64,000 nucleotides of DNA from Candidatus Kapaibacterium sp. Its GTDB lineage: Bacteria; Bacteroidota; Ignavibacteria; Kapaibacteriales; UBA2268. The stretch covers positions 2,112,001 to 2,176,000 of the forward strand of contig OY762428.1 of the NCBI GenBank assembly GCA_963665665.1. The letters run 5' to 3'. The position numbers and the translations under genes are program-made. Every line of letters begins with the position of its first letter. Within the stretch, counting starts at the first letter, position 1. The notes beneath the pieces were generated by a model that was not told the origin of the DNA, made no database searches, and saw nothing but the letters and a program-made list of their open reading frames with translations. This document shows, in pieces, positions 5,884 to 19,750 of the stretch.

Positions 5884-6198
5884 ATGTGATATACTTGTTT
5901 TTGAGCGTTTTTCGCGTTTACCGGCCTTTGATATGATCTACAACCCCTAACTAAGAATTTTCCCGATGCTTACTTTGGTTTTTTATTTATGATAAGCATT
6001 TTGCACTTTTATAGAGGTTATTTTGGAGAAATGAAACTTTGTATTTATTTGAATTACACTGATCACGGCTTTTTTACTGAAGATTTTTTACTTCTTTCCT
6101 ACTCATCCCGGTAACTCATTGATATTAATAATTTTAATATCGTTGATTCTTCTTCCCGAAACGATTTTTCACGCCCAAAATCCCTTGTTCTGAGCCAT

Positions 6199-6450
6199 CC
6201 GAGCGTTCCCTCGTGTTTGCCGAGTGTTTCCTCGTGCTTGCCGAGTGTTTCCTCGTGCTTGCCGAGCGTTCCCTCGTGTTTGCCGAGTGTTTCCTCGTGT
6301 TTGCCGAGTGTTTCCTCGTGTTTGCCGAGCGTTCCCTCGTGCTTTCCGAGCGTTCCCTCGTGCTTTCCGAGCGTTCCCTCGTGCTTGTCGAGCGTTCCCT
6401 CGTGCTTGTCGAGTGTTCCCTCGTGTTTGCCGAGCGTTCCCCAGAGCCTT
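6199..6450. repeat. Tandem array of 12 x 21 bp (consensus CCGAGYGTTYCCTCGTGYTTG)
   Basis: Units read at 6199, 6220, 6241 ... 6430 (last one degenerate); internal palindrome CGAG-N6-CTCG. Confidence 0.95.
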
Positions 6451-6615
6451 CCGAGAGACTTTTTCAGTCAAAATTATTATCAGAAAACACGGAATTTTAC
6501 TTTTTTGATTAAAAGTTTCGTTGGTTTTATCAGATAAAACACTTTGATCATTTGATGTATTAATCAGGCAGGACCGATAATCGGTTTTGCCTTGTAATTG
6601 TTTTATTCATAACTA

Positions 6616-7905
6616 TTGGAGGTTACAATGCCGATAATTGTTGATAATTCGTTCACGAATGATTCCCACGGGATGAGGGCCGAAAGGCTTAATGCCATAC
6701 AGGGGAATCTTTCGATAATACAGCCCGAGCTTAACGCACCGCCGGAAATTACCGGATGGGCTTCGGGATGCTATGACTTGTTTATGCAGAAGTGGGCCAC
6801 GGCCGGAACAGAGAGCGGCGAGAAGGAAGGAGCCACTTATGACGTTAATGTTAAGGAGGAGAAGATGGAGGAGGAGTACCAGCACTGCCGCAATGTTGGT
6901 ATTGCTGCTTATGTTGATGATCAGATGCACCTGAAGGATTTTCACTTCGACGAGACATACCCGCGTGGTAGGAATGACTGTGTTGCCAGGGTGAAGCTTG
7001 TTCTGGATGCACACCTGCGGCACGAGGCCGAGGGGATTACGCACCTGATACCGGCAGAGCTGATAGTGAGGCTGACTACTGCTGTAACGGAACTGGAAGA
7101 GGCCCTGCGGAATCAGGACAAGGAAAGGTCGGAGGCGGAACATGCGGTTCTTGAGCTTTCGGAGGCCATGGAATATGATACTAAGAAGCTGAATACGCTG
7201 AAGTCCTGGTGGTTTGCCATTATGGGCAAGGAGGATCCGAGGATTGGCTATATCGGGATGGTGAACCCAAAGGGCGGCCAGGGGCGGCGCCTGCCGGCAG
7301 TACCGCAGAACTTTACTTACAATATCGGGAGCGGCGTGTTTTCCTGGGATGCGGTGGAAACTGCTACGAGCTATCAGCTTGCCTACCGTCACGCGGGAAC
7401 GAGCGAGAACTGGGAGCAGGGCTATCAGGGCGGCGATACAAGCAGCAGTTTCTTCCCCGGCGCCGGCAGCTGGGAGTTCAAGGTGCGCGCCCGCAACGAG
7501 CATGGCTACGGTGATTTCTCGAATGTGATAACGACCGAACTTGAGGACATTTTGCTGCCTCCGGCATGGGTATACGCACACTACAGCGGCGCCCCGGCAG
7601 TCAGGGGAGAGGGGGCCCCGGGGAACGGGGAGGCTCCGAGGGTTGAGCAGAACAATGTGGAGGTGACATGGGCGGAATCAACACGGGCGGAGCTTTACGA
7701 GATATGGCGCTCTATTGTTGATATTAATGATCCTCCGGGTGAATTTACAAAGATAGTGGAAACGAGCAGCCGCCGCTACCTTGATTTTGATATCCAAAGC
7801 CTTACCCGCCATTATTATTATATTATTGCCACCGCCGGGGAGCTGCGCAGCGAGCAGAGCGTGCAGGCAATGGCGGAGATATTGCAGGCGACGCCGGTGG
7901 CGTAA
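6616..7905 (+). CDS. Hypothetical protein, N-terminal helical domain plus two fibronectin type III-like domains
   Basis: 429-aa ORF; P.N...FSWDAV..ATSYQL...WEFKVRARNEHGYGDFS and VTW.....YEIWRS...YLD.....HYYYI FN3 patterns; no signal peptide; true start may be ATG 6628 after GGAGG. Confidence 0.8.
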   Translation: MEVTMPIIVDNSFTNDSHGMRAERLNAIQGNLSIIQPELNAPPEITGWASGCYDLFMQKWATAGTESGEKEGATYDVNVKEEKMEEEYQHCRNVGIAAYVDDQMHLKDFHFDETYPRGRNDCVARVKLVLDAHLRHEAEGITHLIPAELIVRLTTAVTELEEALRNQDKERSEAEHAVLELSEAMEYDTKKLNTLKSWWFAIMGKEDPRIGYIGMVNPKGGQGRRLPAVPQNFTYNIGSGVFSWDAVETATSYQLAYRHAGTSENWEQGYQGGDTSSSFFPGAGSWEFKVRARNEHGYGDFSNVITTELEDILLPPAWVYAHYSGAPAVRGEGAPGNGEAPRVEQNNVEVTWAESTRAELYEIWRSIVDINDPPGEFTKIVETSSRRYLDFDIQSLTRHYYYIIATAGELRSEQSVQAMAEILQATPVA

Positions 7906-9134
7906 GGAAGAATAACTGGGATAAGTAGGAAAAGAAGAAGGATGGGTAGGATGATAAGGAGAAGAATCTGCACTGGGATGGGTTGGATGATGAAGAGGGA
8001 TGGGTAGGATAATGTTTCTTCATCTTAATCCTATTAATCCAAAACATCCTATAAATCCAAGTTCTGACTTGTAGGATGATGAAGAGAAGAATCAGCACTG
8101 GGATGGGTAGGATGGAGAAGACAGATGAATAGGATAATGAAGACAGAGGGGCTAAATAACATTTCTTAATCCTATAATCCTATAATCCTAAACATCCTAT
8201 AAATCCGAGTTCTGACTTGAGGGATGATGAAGAAGATAAAGAATCTGCACTGGGAGGGGTAGGATGAAAAAGACAGATGAAGAGGATAATATTTCTTTAT
8301 CTTAATCCTATAATCCTGTACATCCTATAAATCCAAGTTCTGACTTGAGGAGTGATGATGAAGAGAAGAATCAGAATTGGGATGGGTTGGATGAGAAGAC
8401 AGATGAAGAGGATAAAGAAGACAGAGGGGCTAAATAACATTTCTTAATCCTAAATCCTAAACATCCTATAAATCCAAGTTCTGACTTGAAGGATGTAGAG
8501 GATGAAAAAGATAGATGAGTAGGATAATGTTTCTTCATCTTAATCCTATTAATCCAAAACATCCTATAAATCCAAGTTATGACTTGTGGGATGATGAAGA
8601 GAAGAATCAGCACTGGGATGGGTAGGATGGAGAAGACAGATGAATAGGATAATGAAGACAGAGGGGCTAAATAACATTTCTTAATCCTATAATCCTAAAC
8701 ATCCTATAAATCCAAGTTCTGACTTGAAGGATGATGAAGACAGATGAAGAGGATAATGTTTCTTTATCTTAATCCTATAATCCTAAACATCCTATAAATC
8801 CTAGTTCTGACTTGAGGAGTGATGATGAAGAGAAGAATCAGAATTGGGATGGGTAGGATGGAGAAGACAGATGAATAGGATAATGAAGACAGAGGGGCTA
8901 AATAACATTTCTTAATCCTATAATCCTAAACATCCTATAAATCCAAGTTCTGACTTGAAGGATGATGAAGACAGATGAAGAGGATAATGTTTCTTTATCT
9001 TAATCCTATAATCCTGTACATCCTATAAATCCGAGTTCTGACTTGAGGAGTGATGATGAAGAAGAGGCTAATGTTTCTTCATCTTAATCCTATATATCCT
9101 AAACATCCTATAAATCCGAGTTCTGACTTGAAGG
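7906..9134 (+). repeat. Cluster 1 of GxxExxY-associated imperfect palindromic repeats (10 copies)
   Basis: Core ATCCTATAAATCCRAGTTCTGACTTG ends near 8071, 8219, 8347, 8488, 8586, 8726, 8814, 8957, 9045, 9130; copies separated by purine-rich GGAT/GAAGA modules. Confidence 0.95.
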
Positions 9135-9203
9135 ATGGAGAGGTTAGAAATGGAAAAAATGTGTAAATTGCACAAGGAATTGTTTTTTAATATTTTAGTG
9201 CTG

Positions 9204-10349
9204 ATGAAATTACGATTGCTATACCTTACCTACTCTGTGCCGCGCCCGTCTACGCCTCTGTCCAGTGCTTTCAATATGAACAGGATCAGGGAGTTAAAAA
9301 GAAGGAACAATATTGGGCTGTATGCCCTGAGTTTTGAGCATTTTGTTAAATTTCATAAATATAGATCGAATTATAATTTTAGCGACCTGGGATTTGACTT
9401 TGACCAGGATGTAAAATGCCTGCTTAAGGTTGAAAACCCATATAGCTATATGGATATGCTAAGGCCTGTTAACACGTTCAAAATTTATAAATTTTATAAA
9501 GAAAATAATATTAACCTGATTCATGCACATGTTCTGCGGGATGGATATTACGCACATCTTGTAAAACGGAAGCATCCCGGTGTTAAGTATGTCCTTACTG
9601 TTCACGGAAGCTATATTGCATATTTGCCATTCAGGTCTGAAAGGATCTAAAGAATAACTTTGGAAGTATTGGAAAGTGCTGATAAGGTTTTTTTTGTTTC
9701 TAATTTTCTTTTAACTACTGCAAGAAAACTTGGTTATAAAAGTGATAACTATATCGTTATAAACAATGGCTATCCGCCTGATATTTTTAAATTTGATAAT
9801 AAAAAAGAAAGCAAATATCCGATTATAGGTTTTTGCGGCAATTTGAATAATGTAAAGAATGTTGTTTCTCTTGCAGGCATTTTTGAAATAATAAAAATAA
9901 AATTTCCCGAAGCAAAGATGCAGATAATCGGGCAGGGGACAAAATTCCGGCACATTTCCGAAGATTTTAAAAACAGGGGCTTAAGTGAATTTGTAAGTTT
10001 TACAGGAGGAATCAGGCAAAAGGAGATTGCCGGATATTTTTCCTCTATGTCAGTTTTGCTGTTGCCAAGTTTCCGCGAAGGATTCCCGACTGTAGTTGCT
10101 GAAGCCATTGGCTCCGGACTTCAGGTAGTCGGGTCAGATATTGGAGGTGTGCGTGAAGCGGTTGGTGATTGTGGAAAGCTGGTAGATCACGGGGATGATT
10201 TCGAGAGAAGATTCGCGAAAGCAGCAATAGAATTAATTCAAAGGCCTGTTAACAAACAGATTATCAGGAAAAGAGCAGATGAGTTGACATGGAAAAATAT
10301 TATTGATAAGGAAGTTGAAGTATATCACGAAATTTTGGGCCATGGATAA
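9204..10349 (+). pseudogene. Glycosyltransferase family 4 interrupted by an in-frame TAA (9648-9650)
   Basis: ORFs 9135-9650 and 9660-10349 are in the same frame; HAH..TVHGS and PS.REGFPTVVAEA..G..VVGSDIGG motifs; likely start ATG 9204. Confidence 0.8.
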
Positions 10350-10459
10350 CATCAAGCCATGAAACCTTTGAAATTATTTACTTAATAAATTATTACAGCA
10401 ATGACTGAAAAGAATATAAATATTGATATTGAGTATGGTTTAGATTCGAGATATTAATC

Positions 10460-10976
10460 AAAGAAGAATCAGCACTGGGAGGGGTAGGATGAGAAGATAG
10501 ATGAAGAAGATAAAGAATCAGCACCAGGATGAGTAGGATGAAAAAGAAGGATAAGAATCTGAACTGGGATGGGTAGGATGGGAAAGGATGAGTGGGATGA
10601 TGAGTATGAGAATATTTTTTCATCTTAATCCTATAATCCTGAAAATCCTATAAATCCTAGTTCTGACTTGAGGGATGATGAAGAAGATAAAGAATCTGCA
10701 CTGGGAGGGGTAGGATGAGTGGGATGATGAGTATGAGAATATTTTTTCATCTTAATCCTATAAATCCAAAACATCCTATAAATCCGAGTTCTGACTTGAG
10801 GGATGATGAAGAAGATAAAGAATCTGCACTGGGATGGGTTGGATGAAAAAGACAGATGAAGAAGATAAAGAATCAGCACTGGGATGGGTTGGATGAAAAA
10901 GACAGATGAAGAGGATAATATTTCTTTATCTTAATCCTATAATCTTAAACATCCTATAAATCATAGTTAAGACAAG
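10460..10976 (+). repeat. Cluster 2 of the same repeat family (3 copies, last one a variant ending TCATAGTTAAGACAAG)
   Basis: Cores end near 10670, 10798, 10976, immediately upstream of the GxxExxY gene. Confidence 0.93.
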
Positions 10977-10991
10977 AGAAAGGATATTACA

Positions 10992-11372
10992 ATGGAAAAT
11001 GAGGAATTAACTCATAAGATAATTGGCTGTGCTATGAAGGTGCATTCAATTCTTGGAAGTGGATTTCAGGAGGTGATTTATCAGCGTGCATTAGGAATTG
11101 AATTTAATAACGCAAATATTTCCTATCAAAGAGAATTTGAAATGGAAATATATTACGAAGGGGTTCATATTGGTAATAGAAGGGTGGACTTTTTCGTTGA
11201 AGATACTGTTATGGTGGAGATTAAGGCAGTCTCCAAGCTTGAAGATGTCCACCTTGCTCAGGCAATAAATTACTGTGAGGTATATGGCCTTCCTTATGGA
11301 TTACTTTTAAATTTCGGATCCTCCAAACTCGAATTTAACAGAGTGTACAATTTGAATAAGAGAAGAAGATAA
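10992..11372 (+). CDS. GxxExxY protein (PD-(D/E)XK nuclease superfamily)
   Basis: LGSGFQEVIYQRAL signature, RVDFFVED..MVEIKAV catalytic-like motif, AQAINY, GLLLNFG; RBS-like AAGGA upstream. Confidence 0.95.
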   Translation: MENEELTHKIIGCAMKVHSILGSGFQEVIYQRALGIEFNNANISYQREFEMEIYYEGVHIGNRRVDFFVEDTVMVEIKAVSKLEDVHLAQAINYCEVYGLPYGLLLNFGSSKLEFNRVYNLNKRRR

Positions 11373-12128
11373 ACTAGGATGAGTAGGATGAAAAAGATAG
11401 ATGAAGAGGATAATATTTCTTTATCTTAATCCTATAATCCTGTACATCCTATAAATCCAAGTTCTGACTTGAAGGATGGGGTAGGATGAAAAAGATAGAT
11501 GAAGAGGATAATACTTCTTTATCTTAATCCAATAATCCTGTACATCCTATAAATCCAAGTTCTGACTTGAAGGATGGGGTAGGATGAAAAAGATAGATGA
11601 AGAGGATAATACTTCTTTATCTTAATCCTATAATCCTGTACATCCTATAAATCCAAGTTCTGACTTGAAGGATGGGGAGGATGGAGAAGATAGATGAAGA
11701 GGATAAAGAAGACAGAGGGGTAGGATGAAAAAGACAGATGAAGAGGATAAAGAAGACAGAGGGGTAGGATGAAAAAGAGAAATGAAGAGGATAATATTTC
11801 TTCATCTTAATCCTATTAATCCTGTACATCCTATAAATCCGAGTTCTGACTTGAAGGATGTAGAGGATGAAAAAGATAGATGAGTAGGATAATATTTCTT
11901 TATCTTAATCCAATAATCCTAAAAATCCAATAAATCCGAGTTCTGACTTGTGGGATGATGTAGAGGATGAAAAAGACAGATGAGTAGGATAATACTTCTT
12001 CATCTTAATCCTATTAATCCTGTACATCCTATAAATCATAGTTCTGACTTGAAGGATGGAGAGGATAAAGAAGACAGATGAAGAGGATAATGTTTCTTCA
12101 TCTTAATCCTATTAATCCTGAAAATCCA
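11373..12128 (+). repeat. Cluster 3 of the same repeat family (6 copies plus 1 truncated)
   Basis: Begins at the GxxExxY stop codon; cores end near 11471, 11569, 11667, 11853, 11950, 12051; partial copy to about 12128. Confidence 0.95.
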
Positions 12129-18965: not shown

Positions 18966-19241
18966 ATGAAACAGAATACAGCAAGATTTGATGCAAGGTT
19001 GTCGGCAGAGCAGAAAAGTATGTTCGAAAAAGCCGCTGTTCTTGGCGGATACAGGAATCTGACAGATTTTGTAATAGCTGCCGTAAGGGATAAAGCAAAT
19101 GAAATAATTGAAAAGAATGAAAGCATAATTGCCTCGGAAAGAGACAAGGAAATATTCTTCAGCGCTTTAATGAATCCGCCGAAACCGAACAATGAACTTT
19201 TTGCAGCAAAAGAAGAGTATGATAATCTGGTAGCTGAATAA
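18966..19241 (+). CDS. DUF1778 (TacA/AtaR-like) RHH antitoxin
   Basis: ARFDARL..EQK...EKAA...G..LTDFV and F..AL.NPPKPN..L motifs; stop overlaps GNAT start. Confidence 0.9.
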   Translation: MKQNTARFDARLSAEQKSMFEKAAVLGGYRNLTDFVIAAVRDKANEIIEKNESIIASERDKEIFFSALMNPPKPNNELFAAKEEYDNLVAE

Positions 19242-19750
19242 TGTACTTTACTCGTCCATTAGACCCAAAATATAACCGTGTTGAATTTTCTAGCGGTAAT
19301 GAACTATTGGATAATTATTTTAGGAGGCAGGCTCGGCAGGATGTAAAACGAAAGCTTGCTGCATGTTTTGTTATAATCGATGAAAAAAGTGGGAAAATAT
19401 CCGGATTCTATACTCTTTCAAGTGCAGGTATTGCACAGAGGTTTGTTCCGGATTCGTTTAGAAAAAAGCTTCCCAAATCGTATAACACTCTACCGGCAAT
19501 ACTTATTGGCCGGTTCGCAGTTGATATAGAATTTCAGGGTAGTGGTATTGGAAAACTATTATTGATTGACGCTCTGAAAAGATGCCACAATACATCTGAT
19601 TATATTGGAGCCTTTGCTGTCATTGTTGATCCGATAGATATGGAAGCCGAAAAATTCTATGAAAAACACGGATTTATTAAACTCCCGGATAGCGGAAAGA
19701 TGTTTCTGCCAATGAAAACTATTGAGAATTTGTTTGTAGTAAGAAATTAG
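19241..19750 (+). CDS. GNAT acetyltransferase toxin (TacT/AtaT-like)
   Basis: F.SG...LD.Y, PAILIGRFAVD...QGSGIGKLLL.DAL, A..FY.KHGF. Confidence 0.9.
   Translation: MYFTRPLDPKYNRVEFSSGNELLDNYFRRQARQDVKRKLAACFVIIDEKSGKISGFYTLSSAGIAQRFVPDSFRKKLPKSYNTLPAILIGRFAVDIEFQGSGIGKLLLIDALKRCHNTSDYIGAFAVIVDPIDMEAEKFYEKHGFIKLPDSGKMFLPMKTIENLFVVRN

Follow-up and report, generated by a model that had tools for sequence, protein, structure and literature searches.

A GxxExxY gene bracketed by hairpin arms: a candidate selfish cassette expanded in tandem in Candidatus Kapaibacterium

A small gene of the GxxExxY family in Candidatus Kapaibacterium sp. (assembly GCA_963665665.1, contig OY762428.1) is surrounded by numerous short repeats, all of which point in the same direction as the gene. 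The question raised by this locus is what these repeats are and what ties them to the gene. The stretch of 64,000 nucleotides (nt) that was analysed, referred to here as the window, had received a first-pass annotation, which described the repeats as hairpins and proposed a nuclease/repeat system similar to the REPINs (doublets of repetitive extragenic palindromic, REP, sequences) and their REP-associated tyrosine transposases (RAYT). The partnership between gene and repeats turns out to be real and widespread; the likeness to REPINs, however, holds only in part, as a RAYT plays no part in it and the gene usually lies inside the hairpin. The explanation tentatively favoured here is that of a selfish DNA-level cassette with inverted arms recognised by its protein, which in the window would have expanded locally, in tandem, by unequal recombination.

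Twenty repeat units of a single family lie between window positions 7906 and 12128, in three head-to-tail arrays on the + strand (Table 1), which agrees with the three co-oriented clusters originally described. The units were delimited by cutting the arrays at their conserved right end. The core ATCCTATAAATCCRAGTTCTGACTTG is matched 18 times at up to 3 mismatches, always on the + strand, where shuffled sequences give an expectation of 0.00. As the annotation had stated, the left arms (27-165 nt) are purine-rich and poor in C (79% purine, 4.4% C) and are shuffled from a few modules, with sub-periods of 22, 44, and 50 nt. The right arms are nearly devoid of G (7%), measure 50-59 nt (one is truncated, at 37 nt), and have a mean pairwise identity of 86% over 18 copies. 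A duplicated block in array 1 proved longer than the approximately 190 bp reported before, as positions 8590-8820 and 8821-9051 share 231 nt at 98% identity. The gene itself is tightly enclosed: the variant unit of array 2, whose distinctive right tip is GTTAAGAC, stops 15 nt before the GxxExxY ATG (10992), and array 3 starts at the stop codon (11370-11372), both as first noted.

Table 1. Coordinates of the repeat arrays, the genes, and the gene-less hairpins (window positions, except those prefixed by C1, which refer to the genome)
Feature	Position	Strand	Description
GxxExxY gene, 126 aa	10992..11372	+	PF13366/TIGR04256; the genome's only copy
Array 1	7906..9130	+	10 head-to-tail units of 85-166 nt; purine-rich modular left arm, conserved right arm ending in AGTTCTGACTTG
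Array 2	10450..10976	+	2 complete units and a variant unit ending in TCATAGTTAAGACAAG
Array 3	11373..12128	+	6 complete units (97-186 nt) and a truncated seventh
Representative 98-nt unit	11472..11569	+	left arm about 11472-11512, right arm about 11513-11569
GT4 glycosyltransferase gene between arrays 1 and 2	9135..10349	+	passenger/context gene, split by an in-frame TAA at 9648-9650
Three canonical gene-less hairpins	C1:938,081; 941,955; 3,375,128		inside YD/RHS-repeat paralogs; left tip TTGTCTGAAC, right tip CCCAGTGCAGAA

The proposal that each unit forms a bulged hairpin is supported to a modest degree. In the representative unit, the reverse complement of the right arm consists of the tip GTCAGAAC followed by four GGAT(T/G) cores, and the predicted RNA fold reaches -30 kcal/mol, with a z of -4.25 on the + strand and -1.65 on the - strand. 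Over the 20 units the mean z is -2.05 on the + strand and -1.68 on the - strand, with only 10 units below -2 on the + strand and the + fold being the stabler one in 16. No inverted repeat of 30 nt or more with an exact seed was found. The left parts of the units are degenerate versions of the arms that are described below for other genomes, with the tip ATCTGCAC or ATCAGCAC and cores reading GGATG or GGATA, and the right arms retain, as reverse complement, the tip and four-core design of the family. A role of the arrays in coding for a repeat protein was rejected, as no long open reading frame (ORF) spans them on either strand. Matches to Rfam models were all sub-threshold, those of plant miRNAs reaching 27-30 bits against gathering scores of 135-230, and were likewise discarded. 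The heptamer GACAGAT was also observed, with 12 of its 13 window occurrences inside the arrays, in left arms, and none as reverse complement; according to a passage of PMC4990558, it forms tandem repeats upstream of the S23p ORF in an intervening sequence (IVS) of Coxiella as well, which may be a coincidence.

Within the single-contig genome of 5.46 Mb, the core is confined to this locus (18 forward and 0 reverse matches at up to 4 mismatches), and a profile search for GxxExxY returned the gene at 10992-11372 as its single match. The genome-wide count therefore contradicts a dispersed, REPIN-like repeat in this organism, all 18 core matches being at one place. The possibility of an assembly artefact, raised together with the original proposal, is answered by two sources. 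The runs X1 and X3, which derive from one shared sample, hold the largest share (0.89) of the words of the stretch; their contigs break at the arrays, where word depth is 2-5x. A second organism from another study (organism B) has contigs with the same genes at about 98% identity, with 14 differences in the glycosyltransferase, 9 in 442 nt of GxxExxY, and 18 in the EamA transporter. These contigs contain unit-sized array pieces that differ little, and beyond 11410 their modules are ordered differently. Taken together, the array pieces of organism B and the depth in X1/X3 show that the arrays are real and vary between close strains. Three joints in organism B (7904>10552, 9138>10462, and 10600>11790, at depths of 2.5-6.8) were considered as deletions and rejected, their short sides lying inside repeats, and they are used solely as a sign of differing module order.

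The association of the gene with such arms extends far beyond the window. In five relatives, the tip motif AATCCYARTTCWGAC occurs far above its reversed control: 158 times against 1 in G034, 71 against 1 in G001, 33 against 0 in G041, 22 against 5 in G018, and 8 against 0 in G002. From four of these genomes, 9 GxxExxY loci were inspected with flanks of up to 450 bp per side. In 8 of the 9, hairpin arms made of 8-9-nt sub-repeats adjoin the gene, and the ninth (L030) is a gene fragment with a degenerate left arm upstream only. The sub-repeat sequence varies by locus (AAGATTTT, CAGAATTT, CACGGATTT, AGGATTTT), and a second protein subtype, found at L025 and L026, is accompanied by CCTTTGTG/CACAAAGG. 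The tips GTCTGAA/TTCAGAC recur, with the exception of L025 and L026, whose downstream hairpins are without them. G041 has its left arm before the gene and its right arm after it, leaving the gene in the loop. In G002, 5 of the 8 tip motifs lie no more than 3 kb from the single gene, which has complete hairpins on both sides, an arrangement shared by G034:C5, G007:C61, and the window. The hairpins of G034 (L009, L016, L018, L020) often stand beside runs of a 7-nt repeat, (TGGTYAA)n, sometimes inverted across the two sides.

Relatives of the protein numbered 601 in a scan that took one genome per species, and the best 80 of them (L031-L110, 59-74% identical) were analysed. They come mostly from Bacteroidota, and also from Cyanobacteria, Anaerolineae, Leptospiraceae, Nitrospirae, Ignavibacteriales, and others. 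When the 300 bp upstream of the gene were aligned locally, in inverted orientation, with the 300 bp downstream (score of at least 30), 52 of 77 loci proved to have an inverted repeat bracketing the gene; control placements, set in the same loci, gave one in 2 cases out of 233 (Fisher p 3e-37). With a strict arm detector, based on the tip at up to 1 mismatch and phased GAT cores, 63 of the 80 loci were found to have one or more arms no farther than 500 bp from the gene, and arm density was about 29 times higher beside the genes (143 in 80 kb) than farther off (16 in 259 kb). The enrichment of the repeat near GxxExxY genes across genomes, by which the first-pass annotation had proposed to judge its idea, is thus clear. 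The commonest layout is a left arm, the gene, and a right arm (22 loci), and 36 of the 80 loci combine an upstream left arm with a downstream right arm; tandem arms exist elsewhere too, as runs of left arms before the gene (LLL-gene) or of right arms (RRR). The typical arm is about 45 nt long and follows the consensus (A)(T)TGTCTGAAy, 2-4 nt, GATT, and three more GAT(T/G) cores. Of 317 intervals between cores, 271 measure 8 or 9 nt, and 74 of 104 arms have all four cores. Repeat and protein also vary together: arm similarity follows protein similarity, the Spearman coefficient being 0.51 among downstream arms (n=45) and 0.29 among the upstream ones (n=43), values that none of 2000 permutations reaches in a Mantel test and to which shared descent contributes.

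Arms of the same type are found without the gene. The gene itself is patchy, being present in 25 of 61 relatives with 1-4 copies each, and the strict arm pattern occurs 0-193 times per genome, against 0-1 for reversed-pattern controls. The counts amount to 193 in G034, 73 in G026, and 47 in G145, with no match in the reversed-pattern controls. G145, a Bacteroidota genome reached via locus L098, has nine gene-less hairpins of 85-120 bp with the same arm type as its gene-carrying copies. By analogy with known transposons, gene-carrying and gene-less copies would represent an autonomous element and its derivatives, similar to miniature inverted-repeat transposable elements (MITEs). Of the 11 genomes in which 10 or more arms were counted, 8 carry the gene, as do 17 of the 50 others (p 0.04), a co-occurrence that is weak because kin are not independent. 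In G047 (complete, 2.8 Mb), 3 of the 4 arms lie within 300 bp of the only gene. Applied to the genome of the window, the detector gave 41 matches outside the locus, most of them chance-like and in coding sequence, together with three convincing hairpins (Table 1); the reversed-genome control gave 1 match and is a poor one, because the frequencies of GAT and TAG differ. A DNA search of the same genome also matched two ORFs with long (N/H)P(I/V) tripeptide repeats, at C1:640,750-641,050 and 653,100-653,500 on the - strand, whose DNA (ATCCTATWC, with a 9-nt period and ending in AATCCAAGTTTAGAA) resembles a right arm. Viral contigs contributed 2 loci, both with canonical arms, so GxxExxY is not mainly a phage gene.

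The sequence of the arms gives some indication of the level at which they act. Tips and GATT cores are conserved as sequence, and the spacers between them often mismatch. Among the mismatches in the 52 bracket pairs, 45 would be G·U pairs on the sense strand and 50 on the antisense strand, and 228 would pair on neither, so that the arms show no RNA-type G·U bias. The identity of an arm over positions 9-20 is 0.63 with its own partner and 0.81 with the best arm of another locus. Concerted evolution of the two partner arms was examined over the same positions and appears weak, the own partner being the best match in 8 of 39 loci. Conserved cores and tips, combined with a better match to related arms than to the partner, are what would be expected of protein-binding ends, and several of these results lean towards ends recognised by a protein at the DNA level. 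After the right tip TTCAGAC comes A(A)ATG: an ATG starts within 4 nt in 20 of 40 loci, whereas random positions give 10%. This ATG is the start of a long host ORF in 14-19 loci, and the element therefore often abuts the start codon of the next gene. Translational coupling, in which the GxxExxY ORF would extend across the right arm and overlap the next gene by ATGA, was seen in 2 of 51 loci only and is therefore rejected as a general feature.

The protein has the features of a small nuclease. It matches PF13366 with an E of 1.2e-37 (129.2 bits, cut-off 22), its only Pfam match, and TIGR04256 with an E of 3e-39 (134 bits, cut-off 35). An alignment of 79 sequences has 14 invariant columns, among them G24, E27, Y30, E37, Y55, the D-E-K triad D66, E76, and K78, as well as Q90, Y94, and N107. 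The AlphaFold2 model (pLDDT 92.4) adopts a restriction-endonuclease-like PD-(D/E)XK fold. Its best fold matches are Cas4 SSO0001 (Foldseek E 1.7e-5) and the nuclease domain of BpuSI (Z 7.6), followed by an uncharacterised Spirosoma protein (Z 7.4) and Hjc (Z 6.3); since all Z values are below 8, these matches are at the superfamily level only. A sequence search of solved structures returned no meaningful relative (best E 0.83), and PADLOC models gave only weak Cas4b matches (best E 6e-5, 21.5 bits). The protein is most likely an active metal-dependent nuclease, and we infer that it acts on the arms.

These observations can be joined in a mechanism to which we give somewhat less than an even chance. 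The normal form of the cassette would be a left arm, the GxxExxY gene, and a right arm, the two arms being inverted copies of each other, and the gene-less left-right hairpins would be MITE-type derivatives, of which a genome might hold many dozens. The 126-aa PD-(D/E)XK protein, as an active nuclease, would recognise the repeated cores and cut at or near the tips in DNA, either in the duplex or in an extruded hairpin. As a result of the cutting, the cassette would be copied or moved, and so would, in trans, the gene-less hairpins; this movement would leave no target duplication or would proceed by a homing-type repair. In the window, unequal recombination or slippage between the periodic modules of the arms would have multiplied these on the spot, until 20 units of one orientation surrounded the gene and the neighbouring GT4 gene, their right arms homogenised and their left arms scrambled.

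Several results weigh against this mechanism. To begin with, we know of no PD-(D/E)XK protein this small that acts as a transposase. No target duplication was seen: none of the 9 gene-less hairpins has matching dinucleotides abutting its tips, and the 4-nt flanks of 40 loci match at 72 of 160 positions in direct and 69 in inverted comparison. The search for empty sites in related genomes, which had been suggested at the outset, did not reveal a clean one, neither at the Mucilaginibacter site, where a congener has a different palindrome, nor in the YD/RHS paralogs. In the latter, a hairpin of 103 bp replaces 72 bp of coding sequence and splits the reading frame, and the four hairpin-free paralogs keep the 72 bp, which does not amount to a simple insertion. 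Arms were not detected in 17 of the 80 loci, 10 gene-bearing genomes have no strict arm match, and three genomes with 30-64 arms show no gene (these are 79-88% complete). The common orientation of cassettes and neighbours (58 of 72 upstream, 56 of 74 downstream) and the greater stability of the + folds in the window would fit a role as RNA equally well, and the restriction-modification genes that adjoin 36 of the 80 loci could mean a function related to defence.

The surroundings of the gene bear on these alternatives. The locus lies at the end of a polysaccharide cluster, with genes for a nucleotidyl transferase, a carbamoyltransferase, glycosyltransferases, and an asparagine synthase upstream, and for an EamA transporter and another glycosyltransferase downstream. 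The stop codon that splits the GT4 gene was confirmed in X1/X3 at depths of 44 and 32; organism B reads AAA (Lys) at this site, so the gene is nonsense-mutated in the window strain only. A separate tandem array at window positions 6199-6441 consists of 11.6 copies of the 21-bp unit CCGAGCGTTCCCTCGTGCTTG with 91% matches and is open in several frames on both strands. It borders a GC-rich island (45-58% GC at 6000-8000, compared with 25-39% around it), which holds an ORF of 429 aa with only a weak match to the PQLLE family. Farther away, at 18966-19747, an ORF for a TacA-like antitoxin (PF08681, E 9.5e-21) is followed by one for a GNAT acetyltransferase, forming a probable toxin-antitoxin pair of the TacAT type.

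The arms could also work as RNA, in the manner of the IVS of 23S rRNA. The cassette would then be transcribed within host operons, its arms would form a stem in the transcript, looping out the ORF, and a double-strand RNase of the host (RNase III) would trim this stem, either to insulate the host message or to release the nuclease mRNA; the arrays would be stacked processing or stability hairpins, and the nuclease would have some other job. An ORF in the loop is the geometry of 36-52 loci, as it is in the ORF-bearing 23S rRNA IVS treated in part of PMC4990558, and the prevailing same-strand neighbours, the better sense-strand folds in 16 of 20 units, and the orientation of all 20 units with the gene point the same way. 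So does the absence of promoter or terminator enrichment in the arrays (6 promoter-like sites against 16.4 expected, 2 terminator-like sites against 3.3). Moreover, of the genome's three genes of PF05635, the family of the 23S rRNA IVS protein, two adjoin repeats of a similar style (C1:4,405,696-4,406,004 and 1,525,328-1,525,594), one being an 8-nt periodic AGTTGAxA/CAACTxTC hairpin and the other a tip-to-tip TTCAGACGGTGTCTGAA (TTCAGAC..GTCTGAA). This explanation is a serious alternative to the favoured one, but it is considered unlikely, given that the stems have no sense G·U excess and are interrupted by mismatched spacers of 3-4 nt, that cores and tips are conserved as sequence across phyla without free covariation and with the own partner not being the best match, and that RNA processing leaves unexplained the gene-less hairpins, with up to about 190 arms per genome. 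A different role for an array transcript, as a protein sponge or regulatory RNA such as a CsrB-like decoy, is hardly credible. It would draw on the 73 GGAT motifs on the + strand of the 2507 array bases, on the CsrA homologue encoded by the genome, and on a weak Rfam match to RsmY at 7882-7974; this match is sub-threshold, however, with 16.9 bits against a gathering score of 57, and the cores of other loci (AAGATT, CAGAATT, CTTGATT, etc.) lack GGA, which is therefore not a feature of the family.

The genes next to the cassettes suggest instead a small effector or helper nuclease of restriction-modification or conflict systems, with the arms as recombination borders and the window copy as a stray in a polysaccharide locus. 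Neighbours were taken as the largest ORF within 900 bp, which gave 146 ORFs (75 at E <= 1e-6, 71 at E <= 1e-10). Of the 36 loci with a restriction-modification neighbour, 30 adjoin type I genes (hsdM/hsdS/hsdR), in at least 6 junction types. Other neighbours include KilA-N, Bro-N, RhuM, YhcG/DUF1016, Ymh, PemK, and PIN, the first five of which are also found in restriction-modification operons. Both viral-contig loci adjoin ORFs that, by their sequence signatures, we take to resemble type I restriction-modification genes, and the nearest fold and profile matches of the protein are nucleases of the Cas4 type. Against such a role, which seems quite unlikely, stand the 44 of 80 loci that lie among unrelated genes (housekeeping, transporter, or glycosyltransferase genes, as at L107, between glycosyltransferase genes), the weakness of the PADLOC matches, the bare nuclease core of 126 aa with no sensor domain, and the bursts of gene-less hairpins, for which it offers no explanation. 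Restriction-modification operons and glycan loci are variable and often transferred, and would presumably tolerate any insertion; the link may thus mean either that such loci tolerate the cassette or that the nuclease acts in genetic conflict. The arrays could finally be a passive satellite, neutral and prone to slippage, lying beside the gene with no functional link in this genome. The scrambled left arms with their 22-, 44-, and 50-nt modules, the array content differing between two close strains, and the restriction of the arrays to one variable locus, in which a GT4 gene with a nonsense mutation, an array of 21-bp tandem repeats, and a GC-rich island are also found, would all suit a satellite. 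It is nonetheless decidedly improbable, as the right arms keep the tip and the four cores of the family and remain 86% alike over 18 copies, and the one gene lies, in 5.46 Mb, at the one repeat locus, a coincidence that recurs in G002 and G047.

If the cassette is indeed a mobile element, the window would show its arms amplifying in tandem instead of dispersing. A broader claim, which is possible but distinctly doubtful, would make the GxxExxY proteins the mobilising enzymes of an unrecognised class of elements of about 0.5 kb that move without target duplication. In these, four phased GATT sites would serve for binding and the GTCTGAA tip for cleavage, and the system would be the PD-(D/E)XK counterpart of RAYT and REP, spreading with its gene-less derivatives across phyla and preferentially into type I restriction-modification operons and variable loci. 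GxxExxY/PDDEXK_3 is a large cross-phylum family, and the arms, with 45 nt, a fixed tip, and four phased cores, offer it a testable substrate. Action of the nuclease on the arms would establish either a new pairing of an enzyme with a repeat or a minimal mobile element of a new kind. Many odd periodic hairpins between the genes of Bacteroidota, Cyanobacteria, and other phyla would then be accounted for, as would a frequent passenger gene of type I restriction-modification operons. A small nuclease specific for sequence or structure might also find use as a tool. The window is an extreme case, with 20 tandem units that vary between strains, which makes it useful for studying how arms expand.

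Among known systems, the attachment sites of integrons were considered for the tips GTCTGAAC/GTTCAGAC. Integron core sites read RYYYAAC/GTTRRRY. The tips have one extra base each and the gene lies between the arms, so an attC-like reading was rejected, with no integrase search made. As for the family itself, the printed remarks found on GxxExxY/PDDEXK_3 are limited to the entry 'Unknown' in a superfamily survey (excerpt of PMC3424549) and an incidental mention (excerpt of PMC8934634). A published description of hairpin-bracketed GxxExxY cassettes was not found, although subscription journals and supplements could hold one.

Closer parallels are offered by four kinds of small selfish or repeat-bound systems. 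The GIY-YIG nuclease Ssn recognises a multi-copy repeat (NTS/SRM) with which it is associated across genomes, as demonstrated biochemically in the section of PMC11893778 concerned with it. The cassette shares with Ssn the tie between a small nuclease gene and a multi-copy repeat; it differs in nuclease superfamily and in repeat design, and recognition of the arms by GxxExxY is presumed. The 23S rRNA IVS with an ORF, such as that of Coxiella burnetii with S23p, has complementary termini that form a stem cut by RNase III and is regarded as a selfish insert, in the portion of PMC4990558 that describes it. In the GxxExxY family at large, complementary termini likewise enclose the small ORF in 52 of 77 loci; the window instead has complete left-right units on each side of the gene. 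Unlike the IVS, the window locus lies among protein-coding genes and contains no rRNA by Rfam, its ORF belongs to PF13366 and not to PF05635, and its stems are interrupted, with no RNA-type compensation.

Insertion sequences (IS) and their MITEs resemble the cassette in having terminal inverted arms with repeated sub-terminal motifs, a patchy spread across phyla, and, within one genome, gene-carrying (about 0.5-0.7 kb) and gene-less (85-120 bp) forms with the same arm type. The cassette departs from them in that its only ORF, the 126-aa PD-(D/E)XK protein, belongs to no recognised transposase family and no target-site duplication was found. The REP/REPIN-RAYT systems provide the remaining parallel: a low-copy gene statistically tied to short imperfect palindromes, large populations of gene-less palindromes in some genomes, and no target duplication seen. 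REP sequences, as outlined in a portion of PMC3733652, are palindromes of 20-40 bp with a GTAG or CGTC head, whereas the GxxExxY arms have about 45 nt, four periodic GATT cores, and the tips GTCTGAAy/GTCAGAAC. The enzyme is different as well, RAYT being a Y1 (HUH) transposase and the window gene a member of the PD-(D/E)XK superfamily (PF13366); the two PF01797 matches of the genome, at C1:1,821,817 and C1:2,725,416, are far from the locus. Finally, the GxxExxY gene usually lies inside the hairpin and not beside the repeats, and, in contrast to REPINs, the repeat of the window is arranged in tandem at one locus, with related hairpins being dispersed in some relatives.

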